64,000 nt of DNA, from positions 96,001 to 160,000 of the IMG/VR virus record IMGVR_UViG_3300008448_000002; one strand, 5' to 3'. The notes below the pieces were generated by a model. That model saw only the letters and a list, made by a program, of their open reading frames with translations. It made no database searches and had not been told where the DNA came from. Shown one piece after another: positions 12,538 to 62,700 of this stretch; positions within the stretch are counted from its first letter, which is position 1, and the number at the start of each line of letters is the position of its first letter. The stretch is from a virus. The position numbers and the translations under genes are program-made.

Positions 12538-13980
12538 TTAAGTTATTTTAATTCTTTTGGATGAATATCTATTTGTTATAACTTGTTTTACTTCTTTCAA
12601 TATATTATCTTTATTATCTGTTATTCTTTTGATTTTGATATCATTTGATATTCTTTGATAATTAATGTCATCACAAGAAAGATTAAAAACAAAATTATTG
12701 TATTCATTATTTTTCAATATTATTGTGGTTTTTATTGTAATGTCATTGTAATTTATGTCATATTGTTTTGCTAAATCATGTTCAAAATCTAAGAGAATGG
12801 TGATATTTGATGATGATTCGACTTCTGGCACAGAATATTTTGGTAAATTATCTCCATTTATTCTAAATATAAAACAGAATAAACTAAAGTTTATATCTAA
12901 ATATATCGGATTTATACTATCATTTAATATTTTATTATCACTTTTTATAGTATTTAAAACATCTCTTAGAGTTAAATCCTTGAGATTTTTATAATTGATG
13001 TTGGTGTTGTTGAAATAATTTCTTATGATATAATCAATCTCATTATATCCTTGCCCACCGAATGTATAGTCGTTTCCTCTGTATTTTTTAAAATCGTCTT
13101 TATTGTCGAATATTTCCTCCACTTGGTAATCAACCGCATCGGGAGACAAGAGTATTTCTTTTTGACTCCAGAAGTTCAAATTGGGAAGATTTCTGAAATC
13201 GGCAATAACGATTGATGGGTCTGTTATCTTGTATTTTAATAATATATAAAATCCATTCTTTTCATCTTTTACAAAGTCTTGGGGATTCATGAACCCTTTG
13301 GCAATTGATTTATCGGCACTCCAACTCGATATTTTAGTAAACCTTACTTTAGGAAAACTTCCCACATACCATTTCTTCAAAAACTTATCTCTATCTTTAA
13401 TTTTCGCTCCATCATAGAATAATCCCCTATACACATATGTGGGTAAGTTTTTTTCGTCAACTGTTAATTTTCTTAAATGACTCCATGCGTTCGGGTCAAC
13501 TTTATTTTTTGCCATCGAAGTATATTTTATAATTTCTTTTATTAATTCTTTATATGAGTCTGTCTCATATCCTTTATGAAGAGAATCTTTTGATAATTTT
13601 TTGTCTTGATAACTGTTTTTGACATTTCTTATAGTTATGTACTGTATTATATCTTTTTTCAATTTTTCCCAATTATCAATTATATATCGTTTTACCTCAT
13701 TACTGATGATATGGTTATCCTTGATAAACAGTTCGGCGGTACTAATTATGTTTGTATTTTTATTAATAATATCAATAGGTTTGTTAATTCCGACTATTAA
13801 TCCTGACCATTTGTTATTAAAATAATCTATAAATGACTTATATTTTTCATTTAACTCAATATTTGTTGGGTTTAACACTCCTCGTTTATCAACCCCGCCA
13901 CTTTTGAAGTCTGTTTTCTTTAAATTACTTGGATTATTTTTATAATAATCTTGTATTTTATTTAGTTCTACTAATCTCAT
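12538..13980 (-). CDS. Putative R-S-E-class ADP-ribosyltransferase-domain protein
   Basis: YVYRGL, ISSWS and SQKEILL motifs in the expected order and spacing; MRLVEL leader; TAAATA upstream. Confidence 0.6.
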   Translation of the reverse strand: MRLVELNKIQDYYKNNPSNLKKTDFKSGGVDKRGVLNPTNIELNEKYKSFIDYFNNKWSGLIVGINKPIDIINKNTNIISTAELFIKDNHIISNEVKRYIIDNWEKLKKDIIQYITIRNVKNSYQDKKLSKDSLHKGYETDSYKELIKEIIKYTSMAKNKVDPNAWSHLRKLTVDEKNLPTYVYRGLFYDGAKIKDRDKFLKKWYVGSFPKVRFTKISSWSADKSIAKGFMNPQDFVKDEKNGFYILLKYKITDPSIVIADFRNLPNLNFWSQKEILLSPDAVDYQVEEIFDNKDDFKKYRGNDYTFGGQGYNEIDYIIRNYFNNTNINYKNLKDLTLRDVLNTIKSDNKILNDSINPIYLDINFSLFCFIFRINGDNLPKYSVPEVESSSNITILLDFEHDLAKQYDINYNDITIKTTIILKNNEYNNFVFNLSCDDINYQRISNDIKIKRITDNKDNILKEVKQVITNRYSSKRIKIT

Positions 13981-20906: not shown

Positions 20907-22121
20907 TTACTGGAAGCGAATGTTAGAGCTAATCCCAACAAGACCCAAATAGTCAGCACTGTTTCCAAAACTTGAAACAGTATTTGTAAGCTCTTTGTAC
21001 CCGTAACGTGTCATGAATGAAACGGTAGGTTCAAAGGTTGATGGGTCAATGATAACGCCAGTAGATTGTAGTGGGATATATGGGCAATAGAAAGCGGCAG
21101 CGTCCGTTTCAGTTGTGCCTTTATAACCAACCAATACTGAAGTTGTGTCATTAGCGAATTGGTCAACATAGATTCTCATTGAGTTATTCAAAGTACCAAC
21201 GAACTTTGTGTTAGTTGGAGCATCAAATACACCTTCAGTTGTGCGAGCAAAAGCAGATGTCGTAGCAGATTGAAGAATTGTCAATGCTGTGTTTGATACA
21301 ACTGCCCAGTTAGCGGCACCACGTCTTGTGCGTTGAGCAACGAGGTTAGCTTGACGGTTAATTAATGTTGCCAAAGCAGCATGTTCATCACCAACAAAAG
21401 TTGCTGTACCAGAAATGTTGTTTTGGTCATAGATTGCCGTAGGTGAACCAGGAAGAGCACGGAGTGATTGTAGAATCTCTTGGTCAATTTCGGCAGTAAT
21501 TTCTTGTGCCAAAACAGCCATGATTTCTTGCTCCATGTCAATACCTTGTTGTGATTGAGCATCTTGAGCAGCTTCAAAAGTCCAACGAGCAGACAGTTTA
21601 CGGCTTTTCGCTTCAACTGTTTCTTTCAGGATTTGAATGCTAAGACCATTACCACCACGTCCTTCAAGGGCAGCAGTAGCAGCACCAGCAGGAGCAGAAA
21701 TTGATTCGTTACCAGAGTAATAACGAGCAATGTCAAATGGAGACATAGCTTCTGTACCAGCCGTTGTGTAACCAGCACCAGATGCGGGAACGGTGTTAGA
21801 ATAACGGAAACGCAAAGTATGAATTTGACCAACTGGACCAGTCATAGGTTGTACACCGATGATTTCGTTAGCAATTACGGTTGGCATTACACGTCTCAAT
21901 ACAGGGAGAATTACCTTGTTGAGTACAGCAATGTTACCAGAAGATGTTGCGCCAGCAGTTGCTTGCTCCATCAGGCTTCTTTTTGTATTTTCAAGAAGGG
22001 TTTCCATAATTTGTTTTTTAGAACTATTTTTAGAACCATCTTGGTTGTGTGTTAAGTCACGACCTTCAAGCAATTTTTCTTTTGCCAGCGTCCATGTATT
22101 TCCTTCAAATAATTTAGACAT
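20907..22121 (-). CDS. gp23: Major capsid protein (T4 gp23-like)
   Basis: VILPVLRRVMPTVIANEIIGVQPMTGPVGQIHTLR, VEAKSRKLSARWTFEAAQDA, EITAEID, FYCPYIPL, FMTRYG. Confidence 0.97.
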   Translation of the reverse strand: MSKLFEGNTWTLAKEKLLEGRDLTHNQDGSKNSSKKQIMETLLENTKRSLMEQATAGATSSGNIAVLNKVILPVLRRVMPTVIANEIIGVQPMTGPVGQIHTLRFRYSNTVPASGAGYTTAGTEAMSPFDIARYYSGNESISAPAGAATAALEGRGGNGLSIQILKETVEAKSRKLSARWTFEAAQDAQSQQGIDMEQEIMAVLAQEITAEIDQEILQSLRALPGSPTAIYDQNNISGTATFVGDEHAALATLINRQANLVAQRTRRGAANWAVVSNTALTILQSATTSAFARTTEGVFDAPTNTKFVGTLNNSMRIYVDQFANDTTSVLVGYKGTTETDAAAFYCPYIPLQSTGVIIDPSTFEPTVSFMTRYGYKELTNTVSSFGNSADYLGLVGISSNIRFQ

Positions 22122-23366: not shown

Positions 23367-23990
23367 TTATAAACTTCTAATCCACTCGATTAGTTCTTTT
23401 TTCAAATGTTTTTCTGCTTTTGGGTCATATGTTAAAGATTTAGATAAATCTTCGATTATTGACCCTCTATTTCTAAAATTCCATGCTTCGTAGATGGGTT
23501 TTGGATAAGCATTTGGTGCCGATGGATTTGCTACAATATCAATTGTAACAATTTGATAATCTTTTACATTACCATAGTCATCAACATCGCCTGAACCTCT
23601 GCTTGACACGCCCAATAATACTTTGCTATCTAATAAAACCTTAACAATATTTCCCGATGGTGTTGGAAGAACTTTAAGTTTCCCACATCCATTATCACCG
23701 TCCATTTTGATTTCTGTAATCATGTGAGAAACGGTTGCTAAATTAATATTTAAACCCGATGGATGGTCTGCCTCTCCTAAAATTGGCATTCCACTTTTAA
23801 TTCTTTCATTCATCTGGTCTACGGCTTTACTAATTTCCGACACGGGGTAAATTCTACCATTTTGGTTTTTCTTATTACCTTGTACAAAAATACCACACAT
23901 ATACAGGCTTTTAGAACCATTGGAATCTTGAGATTCTTCTAGTTTCATATTTGCCTGATTAAATGCGTAATTTTCTTGTAGCATCAACAT
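23367..23990 (-). CDS. gp21: Prohead protease (T4 gp21-like)
   Basis: N-x-NGRIYP, GEADHP, GVSSRGSG, DIVANPSAPNAYP. Confidence 0.95.
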   Translation of the reverse strand: MLMLQENYAFNQANMKLEESQDSNGSKSLYMCGIFVQGNKKNQNGRIYPVSEISKAVDQMNERIKSGMPILGEADHPSGLNINLATVSHMITEIKMDGDNGCGKLKVLPTPSGNIVKVLLDSKVLLGVSSRGSGDVDDYGNVKDYQIVTIDIVANPSAPNAYPKPIYEAWNFRNRGSIIEDLSKSLTYDPKAEKHLKKELIEWIRSL

Positions 23991-23998
23991 AGTTTGTA

Positions 23999-24823
23999 TT
24001 ACTTTCTACCACTGATAGGGCTAACTTTATTACCTTTAGGTTGTACTGGTTGACTAACTTTTACAGGTGTAAGTTTGTTTGGATTTTTAGAAGCAGGAAG
24101 TTTTTTAACTTCAATGTTCATAGTTTCTGGTTGTTTGTTTTTCTTAAACTTGTAACCAGCATCATCCTTGATTGTTTTACCTGAAATAAGTGATTTACTT
24201 TGCTGAGTTACAGATTTACCATTTGAAAACTTACCATCATCATTATGTGCTTTTACCGCTTCGAGATTAAAAGATTCTTCGAGGTCATCATAGTCTTCAT
24301 CATCAACGGTAATGTCTTCAAACTTGAGTTCATCCATATCTACATCCGCATCGGATTCCATAACTTCATCTTCTTCTGTAATTTCATCTTCTGCTGTTAT
24401 TTCATCATCCATGTCTGATTCCATAACTTCATCCTCTTCGGACTTCATCAATTCTTCAAACTCTGCTTTTAAACGAGCGAGTTCATCTTCGATGTTATCA
24501 ACACGGTCTTCAACTTGTTCTAAATCTGTTTCTTCTGTGTCAAAATCAGCTTCGCCATCTATTTCAAATGATTCATCATCGCTTTCATCGCTGTCAGTTT
24601 CAAATGATTCATCATCCATCACTGGTGTATCATCGCCAAATGTTTCTTCACTATCAATTTCATTCATGCTATCTTCAATTTCTTGTGTAGATTCGGCATC
24701 TTCTTGTAGGCTTTCATAAATACTTCTTGCTTTTTCAACATGAAAATCATGTAGCATTTCTTTTGCTTTTTCTGATTCACCGTTTACAATGTATTCAATG
24801 ATTGTTTTTAAATCTGTAGTCAT
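23999..24823 (-). CDS. Highly acidic prohead core protein
   Basis: Asp/Glu-rich with a basic C-terminus; position between portal and protease; many (L/I/M)xE motifs. Confidence 0.7.
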   Translation of the reverse strand: MTTDLKTIIEYIVNGESEKAKEMLHDFHVEKARSIYESLQEDAESTQEIEDSMNEIDSEETFGDDTPVMDDESFETDSDESDDESFEIDGEADFDTEETDLEQVEDRVDNIEDELARLKAEFEELMKSEEDEVMESDMDDEITAEDEITEEDEVMESDADVDMDELKFEDITVDDEDYDDLEESFNLEAVKAHNDDGKFSNGKSVTQQSKSLISGKTIKDDAGYKFKKNKQPETMNIEVKKLPASKNPNKLTPVKVSQPVQPKGNKVSPISGRK

Positions 24824-32511: not shown

Positions 32512-33345
32512 TTAGTAATTGTATTCATCATCTTCATCTTCTGTTTTAGGACTAATTGTTATAATATTTTTATTAAAATCTACGCAAATATCATAATCTC
32601 TAATATCATCCCAACTATTCCATGAACAACCATTTTCATCAGTTGTAAGAAAAAACTTTGATGATTTTTTCAGTTCTAACATGATATCTTTATATGTTGG
32701 AAATATAATTGGTATTATATCCTTCATTCCCAATTCTTCAATTAAATCATAAAGTTTCAAATATTTAATAATCAAAGTAGTGGAATTGACTTTGGGATTT
32801 TTTAAATCTCTTGATTTTTCGCCGAATGATATAGCAGTTTCCATTATTCGGGCGATTGTGTAATTCGTATTCTCATCCCAAGATGGTTTGAGATATTCAT
32901 TCCATGTATTTTTAATATATTCTTGTATTTTCGGCTGTTTATAATATAGCTTAATTAAATTATCTGACTCCGAGAGATAATCAACGAACTTATCATCTAT
33001 GACTTTGGTAAAACTCCAATAATATGAAGAAACGGAAGGTCTCCCCCACAATGTTGCGGCAATATTATAAAAATCGGTATGGTCTTTTGAATCAACCTGT
33101 ACTTTCTTATTCAAGTCAAAAACATCAGGCAAGTTTTCACTGTTGATGTTGACTTCTTGTTCAGTGATTTCAACTATTTTCATTTTCTGCTCCTTCAACA
33201 TGTCTTGTTTGTTAATGTATTCGGATAATGACATAGATTTTTTATTTGTCAAGGGATTGTTTTCTTTTAATACTTTATTGTCAATAATTAGTATTTTTTC
33301 CTCATGATTTTCTGCCTCGTTGATTATGTTAATTAAATCTCTCAT
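32512..33345 (-). CDS. Hypothetical, probably virion-internal protein
   Basis: MRDLINIINEAE leader and several (L/I)xE motifs in the N-terminal 60 aa; co-transcribed with the late nucleotidyltransferase gene. Confidence 0.6.
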   Translation of the reverse strand: MRDLINIINEAENHEEKILIIDNKVLKENNPLTNKKSMSLSEYINKQDMLKEQKMKIVEITEQEVNINSENLPDVFDLNKKVQVDSKDHTDFYNIAATLWGRPSVSSYYWSFTKVIDDKFVDYLSESDNLIKLYYKQPKIQEYIKNTWNEYLKPSWDENTNYTIARIMETAISFGEKSRDLKNPKVNSTTLIIKYLKLYDLIEELGMKDIIPIIFPTYKDIMLELKKSSKFFLTTDENGCSWNSWDDIRDYDICVDFNKNIITISPKTEDEDDEYNY

Positions 33346-34020: not shown

Positions 34021-34043
34021 TATTTATTTGATATTGATAAATA
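34021..34043. promoter_or_regulatory. Back-to-back late promoter motifs (NTase / ART polyprotein)
   Basis: TAAATA on the minus strand (34021-34026) and plus strand (34038-34043). Confidence 0.55.
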
Positions 34044-34064
34044 TGGTTATTAGGAGATTATAGA

Positions 34065-36413
34065 ATGAGACAATTTATTGATGTTGTGAAAAATGTAGAC
34101 AAACGCTCTATTCTAAAAGAATACTTAGAGAAAACAGAAATACCTGAAAAAATCACAGTTGATGGTAAATTGCGCTGGACAAGAAATAGCGATGGTAAGT
34201 TAATTCATTCAACTATTGAGGGAATTACTAATTTCTGGAAGTGGTTTGGAGACAGCAAAGTTGTTGATGGACAAGGAAGACCCGTGATAGTTTATCATGG
34301 TACTGGAAATGATGTTGGTGATGTATTCAACACGGGCGGTGGGACAGGGAAAACTTTTAATACAGGGACGTTTTTTACCGATAGTCCATCCTTGGCAAGT
34401 ACCTATACAGTTGGCTTAAATAGAAATGTAAAACCAGTATATTTAAGTTTAAAATCACCTGTTATTGTTGATGCTAAACAAAAAAATTGGAAAATGCTTG
34501 ACGGTTCTATTAAATTATCCATCCCTGCTATAAACAAAGAATATGATGAAGATATGGCGTTACTCAACCAATTAACAGGCGGCACCGATAGTTCATTAAA
34601 GGTAAAAGCAAAGACAACTAATTTAAAAAAAGTCTTTGATATGGGGTTTGATGATGAAACTTCTAGCACGGATGATGTAGCTAGATGGTCAAGAACAAAC
34701 GGATACGAAAGTTTGATAATTAAAAATGTAAGGGATAGAGGACCAGCGGGAGAATATGTAACTGATGAATCTTTAAAACCTCATGTAGTATATGTTGCGT
34801 TTTCCCCAAATCAAATTAAATCAGCTATAGGTAACAATGGTGATTTCTCGGACAAATCAAACAAAATAACCGAATCTGAAATTAATAATTATAACATGAA
34901 AGATATATTGAAATATGGATATAAGGATTTAAATACCTCGTCAAAAACATTTTCTAATTCTATTGTAGAAAAATTGGCTGTAAAGAATAATGCCGAAAAT
35001 AAAGACATCATTGTTTTTATGGTTGATGGAGTATATAAATATTTTCTAAAACCATCCAAAAAATTAACAGAATCAGAAGAGATACCCGAAACCATTAAAG
35101 TTAATGGTAAAGAAAGACCAACAAGAAACAGTAATAACAAGTTAATTCATACAACTATACAGGGTATTGAAAATTTTTGGAAGTGGTTCGGAGATAGTGA
35201 AGTAGTTGATAAACGAGGAAGACCTTTAGTAGTTTATCATGGAACTGATAAATCTTTTGATACATTTAGAAATAAAAATAGAGGACTTGTATATTACTTC
35301 ACCCCATCGGCGATAAACGCATCATCATACTCAGGCTCTACAAACTCTAACATAATTCAGGTGTATATAAAATCGGAAAATCCTTATAGGGGCGGAAAAG
35401 AAGAAGAATTACTCGAAGCCATCAAACGTGGGGATGATTATTATCCGTACTCTTTGTATAACATAAAAGAGTACTTGTATAGTGGAAACCCTATGCCCTT
35501 TCACTTACCGAGCACAATCAAAGCTCTAAAAAAAATGGGGTATGATGGTTTTGTTGAAATCGAATCCAACACAGAGCAATATGGTGTTTTCTCTCCTAAT
35601 CAAATCAAATCTGCCATTGGCAACAATGGAGATTTTTCCGATAAATCAAACAAAATAACCGAAGCTGCCCCAACAGAACAATTAAAATCTATGATTTACT
35701 ATCATGGCACAGCATCAAAAGACGCTGCTATGAATATTTTAAAGAATGGTATACAAGCACCAGAATTAGAAACAAAAAGAGGTTCACAACTAACTCCCGT
35801 AAAAGGTAGAGTCTATATCACGCCAAAATTAACATATGCTATGGTATATGCTATCGGCATGAGCGGTGCGTTTGGTAGTAAATCATATCAAGTTCCATAT
35901 GAAGGTAATGAAGAAAAGTTCAAACATGTATTTTCATCGTATGTTGGTAAACACGGTGGAAGATATGGTTATGTTTTTACCATTGATGGAAAAGACCTAC
36001 ATGACATACAACCAGATGAAGATGAAGTTGGTGAATTGTATCATATCATTAAGAACAAAAGTCTTGATTATTATAGTTCAAGAGAATCCGATATTTCTGT
36101 AAAAGTGTATGAAAAAATCCAAAAAGATGAATCACTCCAAAGAAGATTTGTTTATTTCTTTGAAAGAGTTGTCGGAGAATATACCTTAAATAAAATTAAA
36201 CAAGGTGAATATGCCTACTACGCTTCTGGTGGAAAAACGGCATTAAAGAAAATGTCCGATGAAATGAAACTTGAATTGGCACAATTAGGTATCCATTTAT
36301 CTCATGGTGGGACAATTATTCCCAAAGAATGTTGGGAAATTGATAAAACATTATTAGGTTATCTTAAAGAAGATGGTTCTAATTTCTTTGAGTTAGCTAA
36401 GAAAATCAGTTGA
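34065..36413 (+). CDS. Polyvalent protein with tandem ART-PolyVal-like domains and a third ART-like domain
   Basis: Two copies of FWKWFGDSxVVD..GRP..VYHGT...FFT/YFT...VYL/VYI...FSPNQIKSAIGNNGDF; third domain YYHGT...VYITP...AMVYA. Confidence 0.75.
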   Translation: MRQFIDVVKNVDKRSILKEYLEKTEIPEKITVDGKLRWTRNSDGKLIHSTIEGITNFWKWFGDSKVVDGQGRPVIVYHGTGNDVGDVFNTGGGTGKTFNTGTFFTDSPSLASTYTVGLNRNVKPVYLSLKSPVIVDAKQKNWKMLDGSIKLSIPAINKEYDEDMALLNQLTGGTDSSLKVKAKTTNLKKVFDMGFDDETSSTDDVARWSRTNGYESLIIKNVRDRGPAGEYVTDESLKPHVVYVAFSPNQIKSAIGNNGDFSDKSNKITESEINNYNMKDILKYGYKDLNTSSKTFSNSIVEKLAVKNNAENKDIIVFMVDGVYKYFLKPSKKLTESEEIPETIKVNGKERPTRNSNNKLIHTTIQGIENFWKWFGDSEVVDKRGRPLVVYHGTDKSFDTFRNKNRGLVYYFTPSAINASSYSGSTNSNIIQVYIKSENPYRGGKEEELLEAIKRGDDYYPYSLYNIKEYLYSGNPMPFHLPSTIKALKKMGYDGFVEIESNTEQYGVFSPNQIKSAIGNNGDFSDKSNKITEAAPTEQLKSMIYYHGTASKDAAMNILKNGIQAPELETKRGSQLTPVKGRVYITPKLTYAMVYAIGMSGAFGSKSYQVPYEGNEEKFKHVFSSYVGKHGGRYGYVFTIDGKDLHDIQPDEDEVGELYHIIKNKSLDYYSSRESDISVKVYEKIQKDESLQRRFVYFFERVVGEYTLNKIKQGEYAYYASGGKTALKKMSDEMKLELAQLGIHLSHGGTIIPKECWEIDKTLLGYLKEDGSNFFELAKKIS
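34800..35663 (+). repeat. Duplicated 25-codon linker (34800-34874 and 35589-35663)
   Basis: Both copies encode FSPNQIKSAIGNNGDFSDKSNKITE. Confidence 0.9.
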
Positions 36414-55316: not shown

Positions 55317-57130
55317 TCTAAAGCTGCGCCGCCAGAAAGTGACACTGTTAAATAACCAGAACCATCTTGTCCATAAGTTCTTGTGGCGCATCCTCCGTTA
55401 TTAACAGAGGAGATAACATCTCTGTTACCAACAATAAAATTAACAACGTCAGAAAACTCTAACCCACCTGGTCCAGTTTGTCCATAAATCTTTATTAGTC
55501 CTGCTTGTAGAGGAGTAAAGGACAAAGTACCAGGACTTGGTATTACTCCGTACACTTTTCCTCTTTGTTGTTCTTTAAATACTGTATTATCCTCAAATAT
55601 CGTTCCGTCATTCGCCGTAATAGACATTTTCTTAACAGCACCAGCACTAAACTCAATGGCGTTATTTGAATCTGCCATTATTGCCATTCTATCATACGAA
55701 TACAGCAATCCACCAGAACCAGTTATACCATTATAATTATAAGATGGTTCAGTTCTCTGTATGAAAACAGATTTTATATTATCGGTTGTTTCTCTAACAG
55801 CAACAGTTGAACCATATGCTGTTAGTGCCGAATCAGCAAATGTTACAACATCTCTTGCCGCCTGAACATCATATACAGCAAACTTTGTAGCAGTATTTGA
55901 TGAATATACCAAGTAATCACCAAATGATGATTGTTGTAATCTAACGCCAGCATCACCAAAAATATGAAGTCCAGTGCTAGGATTGTTTGTACCAATTCCT
56001 AATTTTCCCGTAGATGATAATCTTGCTTTCTCCGAGCCACCCGCGCTAAATACAATATCTCTGGCATCCGCTGCCATTAATGCCAGTGTATCATTTGATT
56101 TTAATAAACCACACCGCCCTGTTATACCATTAAAGTTATAACTAGAACCTGTTACTTCTAAGGAAATAAACTCGTTCCCGTTTTGGGCGTTACTGACAAT
56201 CAATCCGACAGATGTATTTACGTTTGGTAAAGTAGCACGAATTGTACATGTTTGACCGTTATGACTTAAAATATCATAAACTCCTGAAACATCATAAACA
56301 AAAAATCTTTTAGTTTGAAAGTCCACCCCAATTGAATAGTCTGATATATTAGAACGCAATCTTACGGAAGGATTTTCTGTTGTTTTTAAAACGTCAATAC
56401 TACCAACGGGATTTGCTATGCCAATACCTAGTTTGCCACTCGCAGTTAATCTAGCTTGTTCGAGACCACCTGTACTAAAAACAATAGGATTATTAGTATC
56501 CGCCATTAAGGTCAATTTATCAAATGAATATAGTAAAGAACCTTGTCCTGTAGCACCATTGTAATTATAATTAGAACCTAGTCGAAGAAAAGAAGCAACT
56601 TGTGATGGTGCTTCGCTGTTTATAACTCTAATTCCATCACCTGCCGTTACTGGAAAAGTAACAACAAAATCATTATTATTTGTACTTCTTAATTTCTGCC
56701 ATGTGCCACCACCTTCAAAATAATCGGTTGTATCATTAGGAGTAGATGCTATTTTGTAATAACTCAACGAATTATCAGTCGTATTATACCATAAGTTACC
56801 AAGAGTATTTGGGGTTGATGGAGAAGTTGACCCAGTATTTAATGCCGGAATAGTATTCCAACGTGTATTTTGTGAATCATATAATTTCAAAGCCGCTAGT
56901 CTATTGCCGTTTTTTGTTTTATGATGCCATAATTGACCATCTAATGGATTTAGTGGTGATACACTACTAGAAAAGTTTTCTAGCAACTTTACTATGTTTT
57001 CTGCCGATGGTTTAGCATATGATATATAATCTTTTCCAAACAATATCAAACTAGTGGCAGATGTATCGCCTCTGCCATTATCAATAGTTGTTAATAGTGA
57101 ACCGTCTGTTTTTCTGATTTCAATAGCCAT
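55286..57130 (-). CDS. Tail fibre-like structural protein
   Basis: ENIVKLLENFS...P-x-NP-x-x-GQLW N-terminal domain; GKLGIG-x-x-NP repeats; three YN(Y/F)NG(A/I)TG...L-x-x-MAD modules. Confidence 0.75.
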   Translation of the reverse strand: MAIEIRKTDGSLLTTIDNGRGDTSATSLILFGKDYISYAKPSAENIVKLLENFSSSVSPLNPLDGQLWHHKTKNGNRLAALKLYDSQNTRWNTIPALNTGSTSPSTPNTLGNLWYNTTDNSLSYYKIASTPNDTTDYFEGGGTWQKLRSTNNNDFVVTFPVTAGDGIRVINSEAPSQVASFLRLGSNYNYNGATGQGSLLYSFDKLTLMADTNNPIVFSTGGLEQARLTASGKLGIGIANPVGSIDVLKTTENPSVRLRSNISDYSIGVDFQTKRFFVYDVSGVYDILSHNGQTCTIRATLPNVNTSVGLIVSNAQNGNEFISLEVTGSSYNFNGITGRCGLLKSNDTLALMAADARDIVFSAGGSEKARLSSTGKLGIGTNNPSTGLHIFGDAGVRLQQSSFGDYLVYSSNTATKFAVYDVQAARDVVTFADSALTAYGSTVAVRETTDNIKSVFIQRTEPSYNYNGITGSGGLLYSYDRMAIMADSNNAIEFSAGAVKKMSITANDGTIFEDNTVFKEQQRGKVYGVIPSPGTLSFTPLQAGLIKIYGQTGPGGLEFSDVVNFIVGNRDVISSVNNGGCATRTYGQDGSGYLTVSLSGGAALDYTITAISFN

Positions 57131-59790: not shown

Positions 59791-62700
59791 TTATTTTACC
59801 ACACTTGCTCCATTATGACTACTATTATCTAAATATTGTATCCAATCATTCGTTCTTTGTATTAAATCTGTTTGGTTTTCAAATCCTGTTGTTTTCCACA
59901 ATACTCTATTAATAGTTTGATTTACCAAAGGTAATGCTTGTTGATTAGATAAGTCATAGACGGGGCGTTTTGTTCCTGTAGAAACATTGAATCTCACTGT
60001 CTCTACATCAGAAAGAATACTTGTATGTGTAATATCATTCGCGTCATTCCAACTATCTGCTACCACATCAACTATAATATCACCTCTTAATGAGTTTTCA
60101 TCAACTGTTTGTTGTATATCTTTTTGTCCATGACTCGCGGAATTTATATATTTATGATTTTTATTAATGGCAAGAGACAAAGGTTGAGTAGCGAATAGTT
60201 TTATAAATTTTATCTGATTATTAACTATAGTAAAATCAACGCCATATTGCTTAGAATCATACCCATATACGGTTTCATCTTTATATTTTCTTACATATAC
60301 ATATAACTTAGAGAAGTCACCATTCCATGAAGTAGGAATTGAATAAGTTGATATATCTATTTCATTTGTTACTGAATTATGTATTATTCTATCTCTTTTA
60401 CAAGATTTACCAGTCATTGTGCCAGCAAACCCTCGCTCTATATTCTTTAACTCGAATGTTCCATCTTGGTTGTCAACTACCTTCCAATACAATATTTTCT
60501 CGTTAGATACATTTAATATTCCTGGAATCTTACTAATATCTAGGGTTTCTAAATAAAACTTTTTAGTAGTGATAATAGTTCCGTTAATTGATACATCACT
60601 CAGGGTTATTGTTACATTTCCACCAGAAGGAGAGGAGATAGCAGTTATTTTTCCCCTAGCCCAAACAGAAAAATTAGTTGACTCCCTTACATAGACTATT
60701 TGATTTACATAAAGGTTTTTAGAGTTCTTTGTCGCTGTTGTTATAGAAGTAACACCAGAATTAATTGTTTTTAAAACAATAGCAAAAGATTTTCTGATTT
60801 TATTTACAAATGTTGAACTAGGATTTTCTGGATTGTGAAGAATACCATCCTCGAATATATTAGAACTTGAGCCAGTATATTGTACGGTTATTGATGTTGA
60901 ATTATTCAAAACATCATTATCCAATAATAATTCACTATCTAACTTTCTCTTGATTGACCAATTCTCCAAAGAACTCTTGAACATTTCAAATGATAACGGT
61001 TTTGTATTGGCGTAATAGTTTACATTTGCCGTTGTTGAATCGCTATACTTCCATGATGTTGTTCCATCAACAATAATATTATTAGTTGTGCTTTGTGGAC
61101 CAGTACCAGATACATTAGATGTACCAGAAGAAACGCAAGTATATATCTTTCCGCTATTTTTTACAATATCTCCCTTAGTATAGATAGTATTTTGTGTCCA
61201 TGAGTTTAGGGCGGTAATATAATCCGCAAAATCACTGTCTGATTTTTGATAAAAGTTAAAGTTTAATACATCATTTGTTTTTGTTTTTACTAACTCTTCT
61301 GGTCTATCGGAATCCCATCTTGATTGTTGGAAAGCACCACCATTAACAAGAATATCACTTGATGTATAAGTACTAGCATCCGTTTCTTCAAAATCTCCAT
61401 TAATTTCATTTGGTTGATTTCCAATTAAATTAATATCAATATAACTAGCAACATTGATTTTATTGGCAAATCTACAATCTCCAGAACTGTCCCAAGCAAT
61501 AGTATAAAACTCTCTCCATTGATTGAGTAGTGTATCCCATATAAAGTATTGTATAGGCTCTAGTGTTACAGTAACAATAGTTCCATTAACTACCAATGAG
61601 TTTTGTGAAAGATAATTTCTTTCTTGTATGGTTGATACAACCATATCTTTATAATCTATATCATTTTTTCTGTATGTTTTAGATAAATCCGTGTATAATT
61701 CAGCGTCATCTACAAAGGTTACTCGACTTGTATCCCAACCAAAGCCATTGTCCCAACTGTTTAATGTATCACAATCAACCTCGTTTTTATCTAGGTCATT
61801 GCCTTTAATGGTTGTCCCTCTAAAGGCGGCACCAGAAATAAGAAGATTGGTATCCTTTCTTTGTTCGGTTAAGTCAGGTTGATAATGACTCATTATTCTA
61901 TCATAAGCACCAGATTGTCTATCCCAACCAATAGCAAAAAATTCTTTCCATAATAAGTTTGTGGCATCATACATATAGTATCTGTTGTTTTCTTTAACAT
62001 ATACAATTGTTCCAGAAATTAAAGTTGTTGTTCCCTCTAAAGCATCCCTATCCAAAAGAGTATTTACAACTCTGTCATTGTAATTTAATGATGTGTTGGC
62101 ACGATACTCTTGTTCTAGGGCAGAAAAATTATATATCATTCTATTGTTGACATACACAACCTCAAAAGCATCCCAAGGAATTGAGTTCCATCCACTCGAT
62201 GTAGTTGATGAGTTTCTATCAAAAACGATAGAAGTTTTCATTTTTCTAACAGGATTCCAGTTAATATCCCACGATTCATTGTTTGTTTTAGTATAATTAC
62301 TATACCAATCATTCCAAGGAGATGTATTAAGAATCGCCACATCAGTAGAATTGTTTTCATCTAGTATTCTATATGTTAGGGTATTAGTATCAAAGTATAC
62401 TGGATTATCAAAATCGGTAGATGAAACAAGTGTATTATCAATGTCGGAACTAAATGTATCATTAAAATCTCTAACTTTTACATGATACGGTTTTACCTCA
62501 TTGACAAAGCTAAGTATGTCATTGGTCTTATTTTTTGTTACAACAGGACTTTGAATGAGTTTATTTGATGTTCCTGCTATCTTCATGAAGCTCGTCTTAA
62601 ATGCCCAGTCAACATTTATACCTTGACTATATGATTTTCTAATCATTGTTATAAACAAGTCATTTTTCTCAATAGATAACAACAATTTATCTTTTAAACT

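Follow-up and report, generated by a model that had tools for sequence, protein, structure and literature searches.

A probable capsid-cargo polyprotein of ADP-ribosyltransferase-type modules with prohead protease-like junctions in an IMG/VR phage genome

A gene encoding a protein of four modules, three of which are of the ADP-ribosyltransferase (ART) type, was analysed in a 64,000-nucleotide stretch of DNA (the window) that corresponds to positions 96,001 to 160,000 of the IMG/VR virus record IMGVR_UViG_3300008448_000002. The genome containing the window (G000) is a single contig of 194,657 bp with 31.7% GC. The gene (P0001) is a single open reading frame (ORF) at window positions 34065..36413 on the + strand and encodes 782 amino acids (aa). 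A strong ribosome-binding site, AGGAG, is present upstream of its ATG at 34052-34056 (+), and a T4-late-promoter-like element, GATAAATA (34036..34043, +), lies 21 nt 5' of the same ATG. A blastn search with the gene against 50,697 phage records gave no match. The product is probably a capsid-cargo polyvalent protein in which two ART-PolyVal domains are combined with a small orphan module and with a further ART whose family is uncatalogued.

The protein starts with a leader of 22 residues (MRQFIDVVKNVDKRSILKEYLE; aa 1-22, 34065..34130, +), which is predicted to be helical. An LKE tripeptide ends at its residue 19, and its last three residues (aa 20-22) are YLE, which aligns with the KLTE preceding the second ART-PolyVal domain. 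Module 1 (D1; aa 23-270, 34131..34874, +) contains a conserved head (EIPEKITVDGK..NFWKWFGDS), an ART-PolyVal domain with a net insert of ~50 aa and a tail ending in KITE. This KITE forms junction 1 (aa 267-270, 34863..34874, +) and is followed by SE. Module 2 (aa 271-336, 34875..35072, +) is an orphan alpha/beta module of 66 aa ending in KLTE, which forms junction 2 (aa 333-336, 35061..35072, +), is followed by SEEIPE and is the sole junction outside the ART-PolyVal tail type. Module 3 (D2; aa 337-533, 35073..35663, +) contains the head, the second ART-PolyVal domain and again a tail ending in KITE; this junction 3 (aa 530-533, 35652..35663, +) is followed by AAPTE. Module 4 (D3; aa 534-782, 35664..36410, +) is an ART-fold domain outside the Pfam and PHROG models. 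No peptidase domain is present within the polyprotein. A preliminary description, prepared from the sequence alone, had listed a leader ending in YLE, domain 1, KITE↓SE, a small module of ~65 aa, KLTE↓SE, domain 2, KITE↓AA and a third domain (arrows mark putative cuts), and the 782-aa ORF shows this order. The insertion of ~90 aa that it assigned to domain 1 was too large, because domain 1 is just ~51 aa longer than domain 2 (248 vs 197 aa; Pfam spans of 194 vs 143 aa).

All three internal module boundaries carry K(I/L)TE, as had been noticed before, and exactly three K[IL]TE motifs occur in the 782-aa polyprotein compared with 0.046 expected from its composition. The 61,661-aa proteome contains 11 such motifs (3.7 expected), five of which fall in two ART polyproteins that represent 2.6% of the residues; all five are located at module edges. 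Both ART-PolyVal copies end in an identical 25-aa tail, FSPNQIKSAIGNNGDFSDKSNKITE, which carries KITE. Between the coding sequences of the two tails, 12 codons differ, all of them synonymously, a pattern that indicates purifying selection on the tail peptide. Recent gene conversion was considered as the cause of the identical tails and is ruled out by the 12 synonymous codon differences.

The domains D1 and D2 match the Pfam ART-PolyVal family PF18760 at aa 68-261 (E = 6.9e-24, 85.6 bits) and aa 382-524 (E = 1.7e-25, 90.9 bits), respectively, and the whole polyprotein scores 169.7 bits. The curated threshold of the family is 31.2 bits, so the ART-PolyVal likeness given in the preliminary description now has two matches far over threshold. 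A head of ~35 aa (EIPE.I.V.GK.R.TRNS...NFWKWFGDS) is conserved in front of each copy. The active site of the ART-PolyVal family is H-Y-D, with His on strand 1, Tyr on strand 2 and Asp on strand 5 (PMC5512222). The family His is kept in both copies (H78 in D1 and H392 in D2), and the acidic column contains D494 in D2 and E215 in D1. The aromatic position of the putative second strand is occupied by F104 in D1 and F412 in D2, and the Tyr of the A..Y motif is kept in both. A relative, P0005, holds an orthologous D1-type domain, insert included. D2 has no relative among solved structures by sequence. The motif GNxGxF....I in the tail is conserved throughout the ART-PolyVal family, and most viral tails end in ..NPDI(R/L)(F/Y/H).. 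without Glu. The literature found on ART-PolyVal consists of computational papers only; no experimental work was found.

The 66-aa module shows no significant sequence match in Pfam, PHROG or PDB, and no homologue of 36-116 aa was detected. Its structural neighbours in the Atlas are weak (SPOR/ferredoxin-like), and the SPOR-like template modelling score of ~0.5-0.58 over ~50 aa is too weak to interpret. The module is kept at 97% identity in a close relative of the polyprotein, P0003.

The D3 domain was modelled by AlphaFold2 with a predicted local distance difference test (pLDDT) score of 93.2 from a 60-sequence alignment. In a structural search by VIA-align, which is independent of Foldseek, nearly all of the top 50 neighbours of this model were ARTs (Z 6.3-3.2). 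The best neighbours were KptA/Tpt1 (Z 6.3), TreX (5.9), pertussis toxin S1 (5.8) and DarT (5.3), and further ones include Scabin, Arr, PARPs, diphtheria toxin and exotoxin A. Matches of D3 in a Foldseek search against PDB were sub-threshold (E 0.03) and also included ARTs. Six residues, H547, Y584, Y595 and D651-E652-D653, are invariant in the 60 sequences. They correspond in D3 numbering to H14 within the strand at 11-16, Y51 within the strand at 49-53, Y62 and D118-E119-D120. A long helical insert of ~90 aa is located between the core strands, and the acidic motif QPDED follows a later strand. Y584 and Y595 are 11 residues apart, a spacing that matches the Y-X10-Y pattern of the diphtheria-toxin group. 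The neighbour list is homogeneous, though of modest Z, and together with the invariant residues it identifies D3 as an ART of an uncatalogued family. As modelled, D3 is an ADP-ribosyltransferase fold of an H-Y-E-like type.

No match to D3 of the window was found in Pfam, PHROG or PDB by sequence. None of the 60 members (0/60) matches Pfam, and only four marginal PHROG hits were obtained among them. A reading of D3 as a divergent third copy of ART-PolyVal was rejected, since the profile-profile probability is 1% and only the YHGT and FT..Y motifs align. The preliminary description of the third domain as ART-like and unrelated to the other two is thus borne out. Its expectation that the domains model as ART folds was confirmed for D3 and was not confirmed for the cores of D1 and D2, which were not confidently modelled.

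An exhaustive HMMER search with D3 detected 603 cluster representatives at E up to 0.001, including 94 at 1e-30 or better. A scan of IMG/VR, with an alignment of eight sequences as the query, placed the majority of the homologues on jumbo-phage contigs 200-600 kb long. In most of the D3 relatives, the domain stands alone in a protein of ~215-260 aa, and a short leader precedes (M/A)A.P and YYHGT, in that order. Among the leaders are MLTFKQFIAE↓MAAP, MKTFIQFIDE↓MAAP, MKSFKSFIAE↓MAPP and MRAYEFITE↓MATP. The start codons of the homologues are well defined because stop codons are found a few codons upstream. The leader length peaks at 8-10 aa, and a Glu is present 11-12 residues before the YHG motif in 99/144 relatives. 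Among these 144 sequences, the cleavage site has L (47) or I (21) at P3, M (62) or A (20) at P1' and A (72) at P2'. The leaders match the T4 capsid targeting sequence, MKTYQEFIAE. The first 10 residues suffice for the targeting of IPIII in T4, and residues 8 and 10 govern its processing (PMC9026906).

The polyprotein junction KITE↓AAPTEQLKSMIYYHGT aligns residue for residue with the leader-cleavage sites of the stand-alone D3 proteins, and by this alignment the KITE↓AAPTE junction is positionally homologous to them. D3 relatives that are fused to other domains keep (I/L)xE↓MAxP directly before D3 irrespective of the partner. The junction is KLTE↓MATP after a protein kinase, SIIE↓TKIDE↓MITP after an ART-PolyVal domain and SINE↓MALP after an HExxH module; SprT, 2H and PARP-like domains are other fusion partners. 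In a tblastn search with D3 against cultured phages, the only match was gp205 of Tunturiibacter phage Tunturi_5 (PP885688; L073:3692-6250, +). This protein is annotated as an 'ADP-ribosyltransferase exoenzyme toxin'; Pfam finds just a C-terminal GNAT domain and no ART in it, and its D3 junction, NLSKT↓AAPL, has no Glu.

A gp21-type prohead serine protease (Peptidase_S77) is encoded at 23367..23990 on the - strand of the window. The gp21 homologue that had been proposed at this position matches PF03420 with E = 6.7e-26 and phrog_207 ('head maturation protease'). The gene lies between the gene for a gp23-like capsid protein and a T4-type portal gene, in a head module composed of the gp23-like capsid, a coiled-coil scaffold-like protein, the S77 protease and the T4-type portal. 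The gp23-like major capsid protein (20907..22121, -) is closest to those of the jumbo phages Phosso, Atu_ph07 and PA5oct (62-75% identity). Its propeptide ends in SLME↓QATAG, at the position where T4 gp23 is cleaved, which suggests that the protease keeps the (L/I)xE specificity. Proteins of the head module start with leaders of 10-11 aa ending in (I/L)xE, for example MTTDLKTIIE↓ and MELKMSNKIFE↓.

The S77 protease was also sought in records with D3 homologues. PF03420 was detected in 10/10 tested records that were at least 79% complete and carried canonical E-type D3 leaders. It is also present in a jumbo record whose ART-PolyVal tail ends in NLNE↓D; two near-complete phages that are not jumbo and have ART-PolyVal tails without Glu lack it. 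One record with 95% completeness, in which the homologue is distant and fused (KLTE↓S), gave no PF03420 match. The negative controls for this link are weak in that the records without E-type sites are mostly 61-72% complete. In this small sample, the P1 Glu fits an adaptation to the gp21-type protease. In T4, Asp at P1 is reported to block processing.

A second ART polyprotein of 837 aa was identified in the genome by a local hidden Markov model (HMM) search at G000:C1:50707-53220 (-), 42,780-45,293 bases before the window start. It starts with MATTIEKLTE↓ and continues with an unknown and GNAT-like region, KLNE↓SEEIPE, an ART-PolyVal domain, NLNE↓D, a second ART-PolyVal domain, KITE↓SD and a tail module of 78 aa, so that (I/L)xE is present at every module boundary. 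Junction 2 of the 782-aa polyprotein (KLTE↓SEEIPE) recurs in it as KLNE↓SEEIPE. Over residues 1-336 the relative P0003 shares 97% identity with the 782-aa polyprotein, and none of the three junction motifs is lost in it. In place of the D2 core, P0003 has a different one, which shows 50% identity (E 2.5e-28) with the leading ART core of the 837-aa polyprotein. In a metagenomic phage (IMGVR_UViG_3300035698_008331; L034:2538-6819, +), three single-domain ART-PolyVal genes stand in tandem, all with MKYLREYNE-type leaders and ..INENI C-termini, and are followed by a 409-aa gene with an NITE↓SK junction. This array represents the unfused counterpart of the polyprotein. The core swap in P0003 and the unfused genes of the array suggest that modules move as cassettes between leader-tagged genes and polyproteins, with recombination in the heads and tails. 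A stand-alone ART-PolyVal-like protein of 192 aa (G000:C1:20910-21488, -; local HMM E 3.8e-7) with a 14-aa leader, MRLDEIKSTVNIFE↓MTWYHGS, was also observed.

Three ART-type modules are joined by motifs that fit the sites cut by the phage's own type of head-maturation protease, and the polyprotein is therefore probably loaded into the capsid, cut and injected. In the proposed mechanism, the polyprotein would be made late and incorporated into the prohead core. Cleavage by the S77 protease would follow Glu in the leader (LKE19 and/or YLE22) and in each of the three K-(I/L)-T-E junctions, and the products of ~27.6, 7.6, 22 and 28 kDa would stay in the head. The products would then be ejected with the DNA and use NAD+ in the host to ADP-ribosylate host proteins or nucleic acids, in the service of host takeover or counter-defence. 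The full chain of packaging, cleavage and injection is judged probable from sequence comparison. The preliminary description had proposed a packaged gene that is cut into several effectors, and this proposal gains support from the homology of junction 3, the S77 protease in relatives, the second polyprotein and the cleavage sites of T4 Alt. T4 gp21 cuts Alt, a packaged ART, at ITE-6 and LTE-619 (PMC5694885), and head-packaged ARTs are considered to be widespread in myoviruses (PMC9503650). Late expression has weak evidence in the element GATAAATA and in the genome as a whole, where ATAAATA occurs 10-50 nt 5' of start codons 38 times in the sense and 15 times in the antisense orientation (shuffled-motif mean 10.7). 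This enrichment on the sense strand suggests T4-like late promoters.

Several observations weigh against packaging and cleavage of the polyprotein, and they are considered here with the alternatives on which they bear. A packaged polyvalent protein may remain intact or lose its leader only, with the junctions acting as a conserved linker and the domains working in cis after injection. Packaging without cleavage is known for some polyvalent proteins, among them the N4 virion RNA polymerase, and up to 12 ART-PolyVal copies occur in polyvalent proteins of phages and conjugative elements without a gp21-type protease (PMC5512222). The processing of ejection proteins also differs between related giant phages (PMC5694885). 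Two of the three KITE-type motifs lie within the duplicated 25-aa tail and are not independent events. The family-wide conservation of GNxGxF....I favours a linker, and the Ile of KITE is generic to ART-PolyVal tails (..NPDI..), even in elements without an S77 protease, so that only the Glu is specific. The link between the S77 protease and E-type leaders may itself reflect shared jumbo-phage ancestry. The full-length AlphaFold2 model has a mean pLDDT of 59.9 and is too poor to be used for the exposure of the linkers or for the folds of D1 and D2. An intact protein is nevertheless considered unlikely. A P1 Glu is found in the tails only where the S77 protease is also present, and neither junction 2 nor the D3 junction is an ART-PolyVal tail. 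Stand-alone D3 proteins begin exactly at the junction, behind a cleavable leader, and the motif is identical to the Alt sites cut by gp21.

The polyprotein could also be an unpackaged, cytoplasmic multi-ART effector that is made during infection, as are T4 ModA and ModB, with (I/L)xE being coincidental or otherwise used. The gene is located outside the structural module, ~10 kb from the head genes, and beside nucleotidyltransferase and DNA methyltransferase genes, which are typical of takeover or counter-defence islands. The T4 alt gene is, however, likewise found outside the head gene cluster. The leader is unlike the targeting consensus of the D3 family: its YLE has Tyr rather than Ile or Leu at P3, the canonical LKE ends at residue 19, and the first 10 residues of the polyprotein rank 95th among 237 genes in a position-weight profile of D3-family leaders. 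It is regarded as an atypical candidate propeptide, and a D3-family-type targeting sequence is not claimed for it. The case for a late promoter is a statistical enrichment of ATAAATA in an AT-rich genome. T4-type targeting leaders are overwhelmingly present in the D3 family, and in two polyproteins the motif is both enriched and placed exactly at the edges of modules, which makes a cytoplasmic effector distinctly improbable. Catalytically dead or repurposed ART domains, acting as binders of NAD+ or ADP-ribose, as decoys against host NAD-based defence or in internal head packing, are very improbable, because H, Y, Y and D-E-D are invariant across the 60 D3 sequences, H392 and D494 are intact in D2 and the replacement of the usual catalytic Asp of the family by Glu215 in D1 is a conservative change for ART catalysis, even though this Glu, the Phe in the second-strand motif of D1 and a literature search on ART-PolyVal and D3 members that returned only computational papers could be read in that way.

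The polyprotein, with its proposed packaging and cleavage, resembles several known systems. T4 Alt is an ART that is loaded into the prohead, cut by gp21 after Glu at the same tripeptides (ITE and LTE) and injected with the DNA, after which it modifies host proteins (PMC5694885; PMC5512222). Alt consists of a single R-S-E domain of the Alt/VIP2 clade that loses terminal propeptides only, whereas the polyprotein contains three H-type ARTs of two other families and an orphan module with proposed interdomain cuts; the two show no sequence relationship. The internal proteins IPI-IPIII of T4 are directed to the scaffold core by a leader of ~10 aa ending in (L/I)xE, which gp21 removes (PMC9026906; PMC3012670), and the leaders of stand-alone D3 proteins are near-identical to it. 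The internal proteins are small, single proteins that are non-enzymatic or inhibitors, whereas the polyprotein reuses the cleavage motif internally to link enzymes and has an atypical leader of 22 aa.

Polyvalent proteins, described by Iyer, Burroughs, Anand, de Souza and Aravind in 2017, are multi-domain phage effectors with one to many ART-PolyVal domains and predicted co-delivery with DNA (PMC5512222). Each is a single polypeptide, encoded by a phage or a conjugative element, with between two and 15 effector domains (PMC5512222), and the polyprotein has four modules, three of them of the ART fold. The processing of polyvalent proteins was proposed to occur by built-in zincin-like or assemblin-like peptidase domains (PMC5512222), whereas the boundaries here carry the site of a separate prohead protease and D3 matches no Pfam domain model. 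The ejection or inner-body proteins of phages phiKZ, 201phi2-1 and SPN3US are head cargo that is cut after Glu, sometimes at several sites (PMC5694885; PMC9026906). They differ in that the motif is (S/A/G)xE or AxE and the cuts mostly remove propeptides and do not separate enzymes, and an ART cargo polyprotein is not described there. D3 shares the ART fold, with His on strand 1, Tyr on strand 2 and a later acidic motif, with the H-Y-E ARTs (diphtheria toxin and PARPs) and the nucleic-acid ARTs (KptA/Tpt1, DarT and Scabin). It differs from them by Z scores of only 4-6, no significant sequence or profile match, the ~90-aa helical insert and QPDED. The literature searches revealed no effector polyprotein that has prohead-protease sites as its module boundaries. 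Polyvalent proteins, T4 Alt and the internal proteins were known, and what would be new is a polyvalent protein that is processed as a polyprotein by the prohead protease and includes an uncatalogued ART family.

Other genes of the genome carry leaders of a similar kind. A 277-aa gene at 32512..33345 (-), a candidate for co-packaged cargo, starts with MRDLINIINE↓AEN, in which a 10-aa leader ends in I-N-E. The leader MRDLINIINE↓(A/S)EN is common to four otherwise divergent proteins and resembles a capsid-targeting sequence; the other three genes are at G000:C1:53292-53615, 55903-56301 and 183925-184320, all on the - strand. One gene of this type is found near each ART polyprotein, adjoining the 837-aa one and one gene away from the 782-aa one. 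A very acidic protein of 274 aa with the leader MTTDLKTIIE↓ and no Pfam or PHROG match is encoded next to the protease at window positions 23999-24823 (-) and is likely a prohead core protein analogous to T4 gp67/gp68. A short ORF at G000:C1:35481-35657 (-) starts with MLLDELLKE↓NATAGSTSSGN, which mimics the capsid junction SLME↓QATAGATSSGN, and is possibly the first part of a gp24-like vertex paralogue that crude ORF calling divided. A giant ORF of ~4,174 aa on the - strand extends from window position 59791 past the window end (to ~72315) and is preceded by TATAAATA. A 480-aa ORF at 12538-13980 (-), which starts with MRLVEL, is located antisense beside a tRNA cluster and has no Pfam match at E up to 0.01.

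If the proposed reading is true, the model of T4 Alt and the internal proteins would be extended to a modular system in which a head protease matures a polyprotein of injected effectors, as in the polyprotein processing of eukaryotic RNA viruses. It would also provide a sequence rule for the injected cargo of uncultured jumbo phages, namely the presence of an S77 protease and of (I/L)xE at the end of a short leader or at a domain boundary. It also points to natural design rules by which multiple foreign proteins might be loaded into T4-type capsids. D3 represents an abundant ART family absent from Pfam and PHROGs, and its leaders make it a strong candidate for a host-takeover or counter-defence enzyme of the first minute of infection. 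More generally, and tentatively, it is plausible though somewhat short of probable that jumbo phages with T4-type heads use the prohead protease as a polyprotein processor, with cassettes bounded by (I/L)xE that shuttle between stand-alone and fused forms. Several effectors would then be loaded by one packaging event at a fixed stoichiometry, and the large, uncatalogued D3 family (at least 600 clusters) would consist of injected ARTs that possibly act on nucleic acids.

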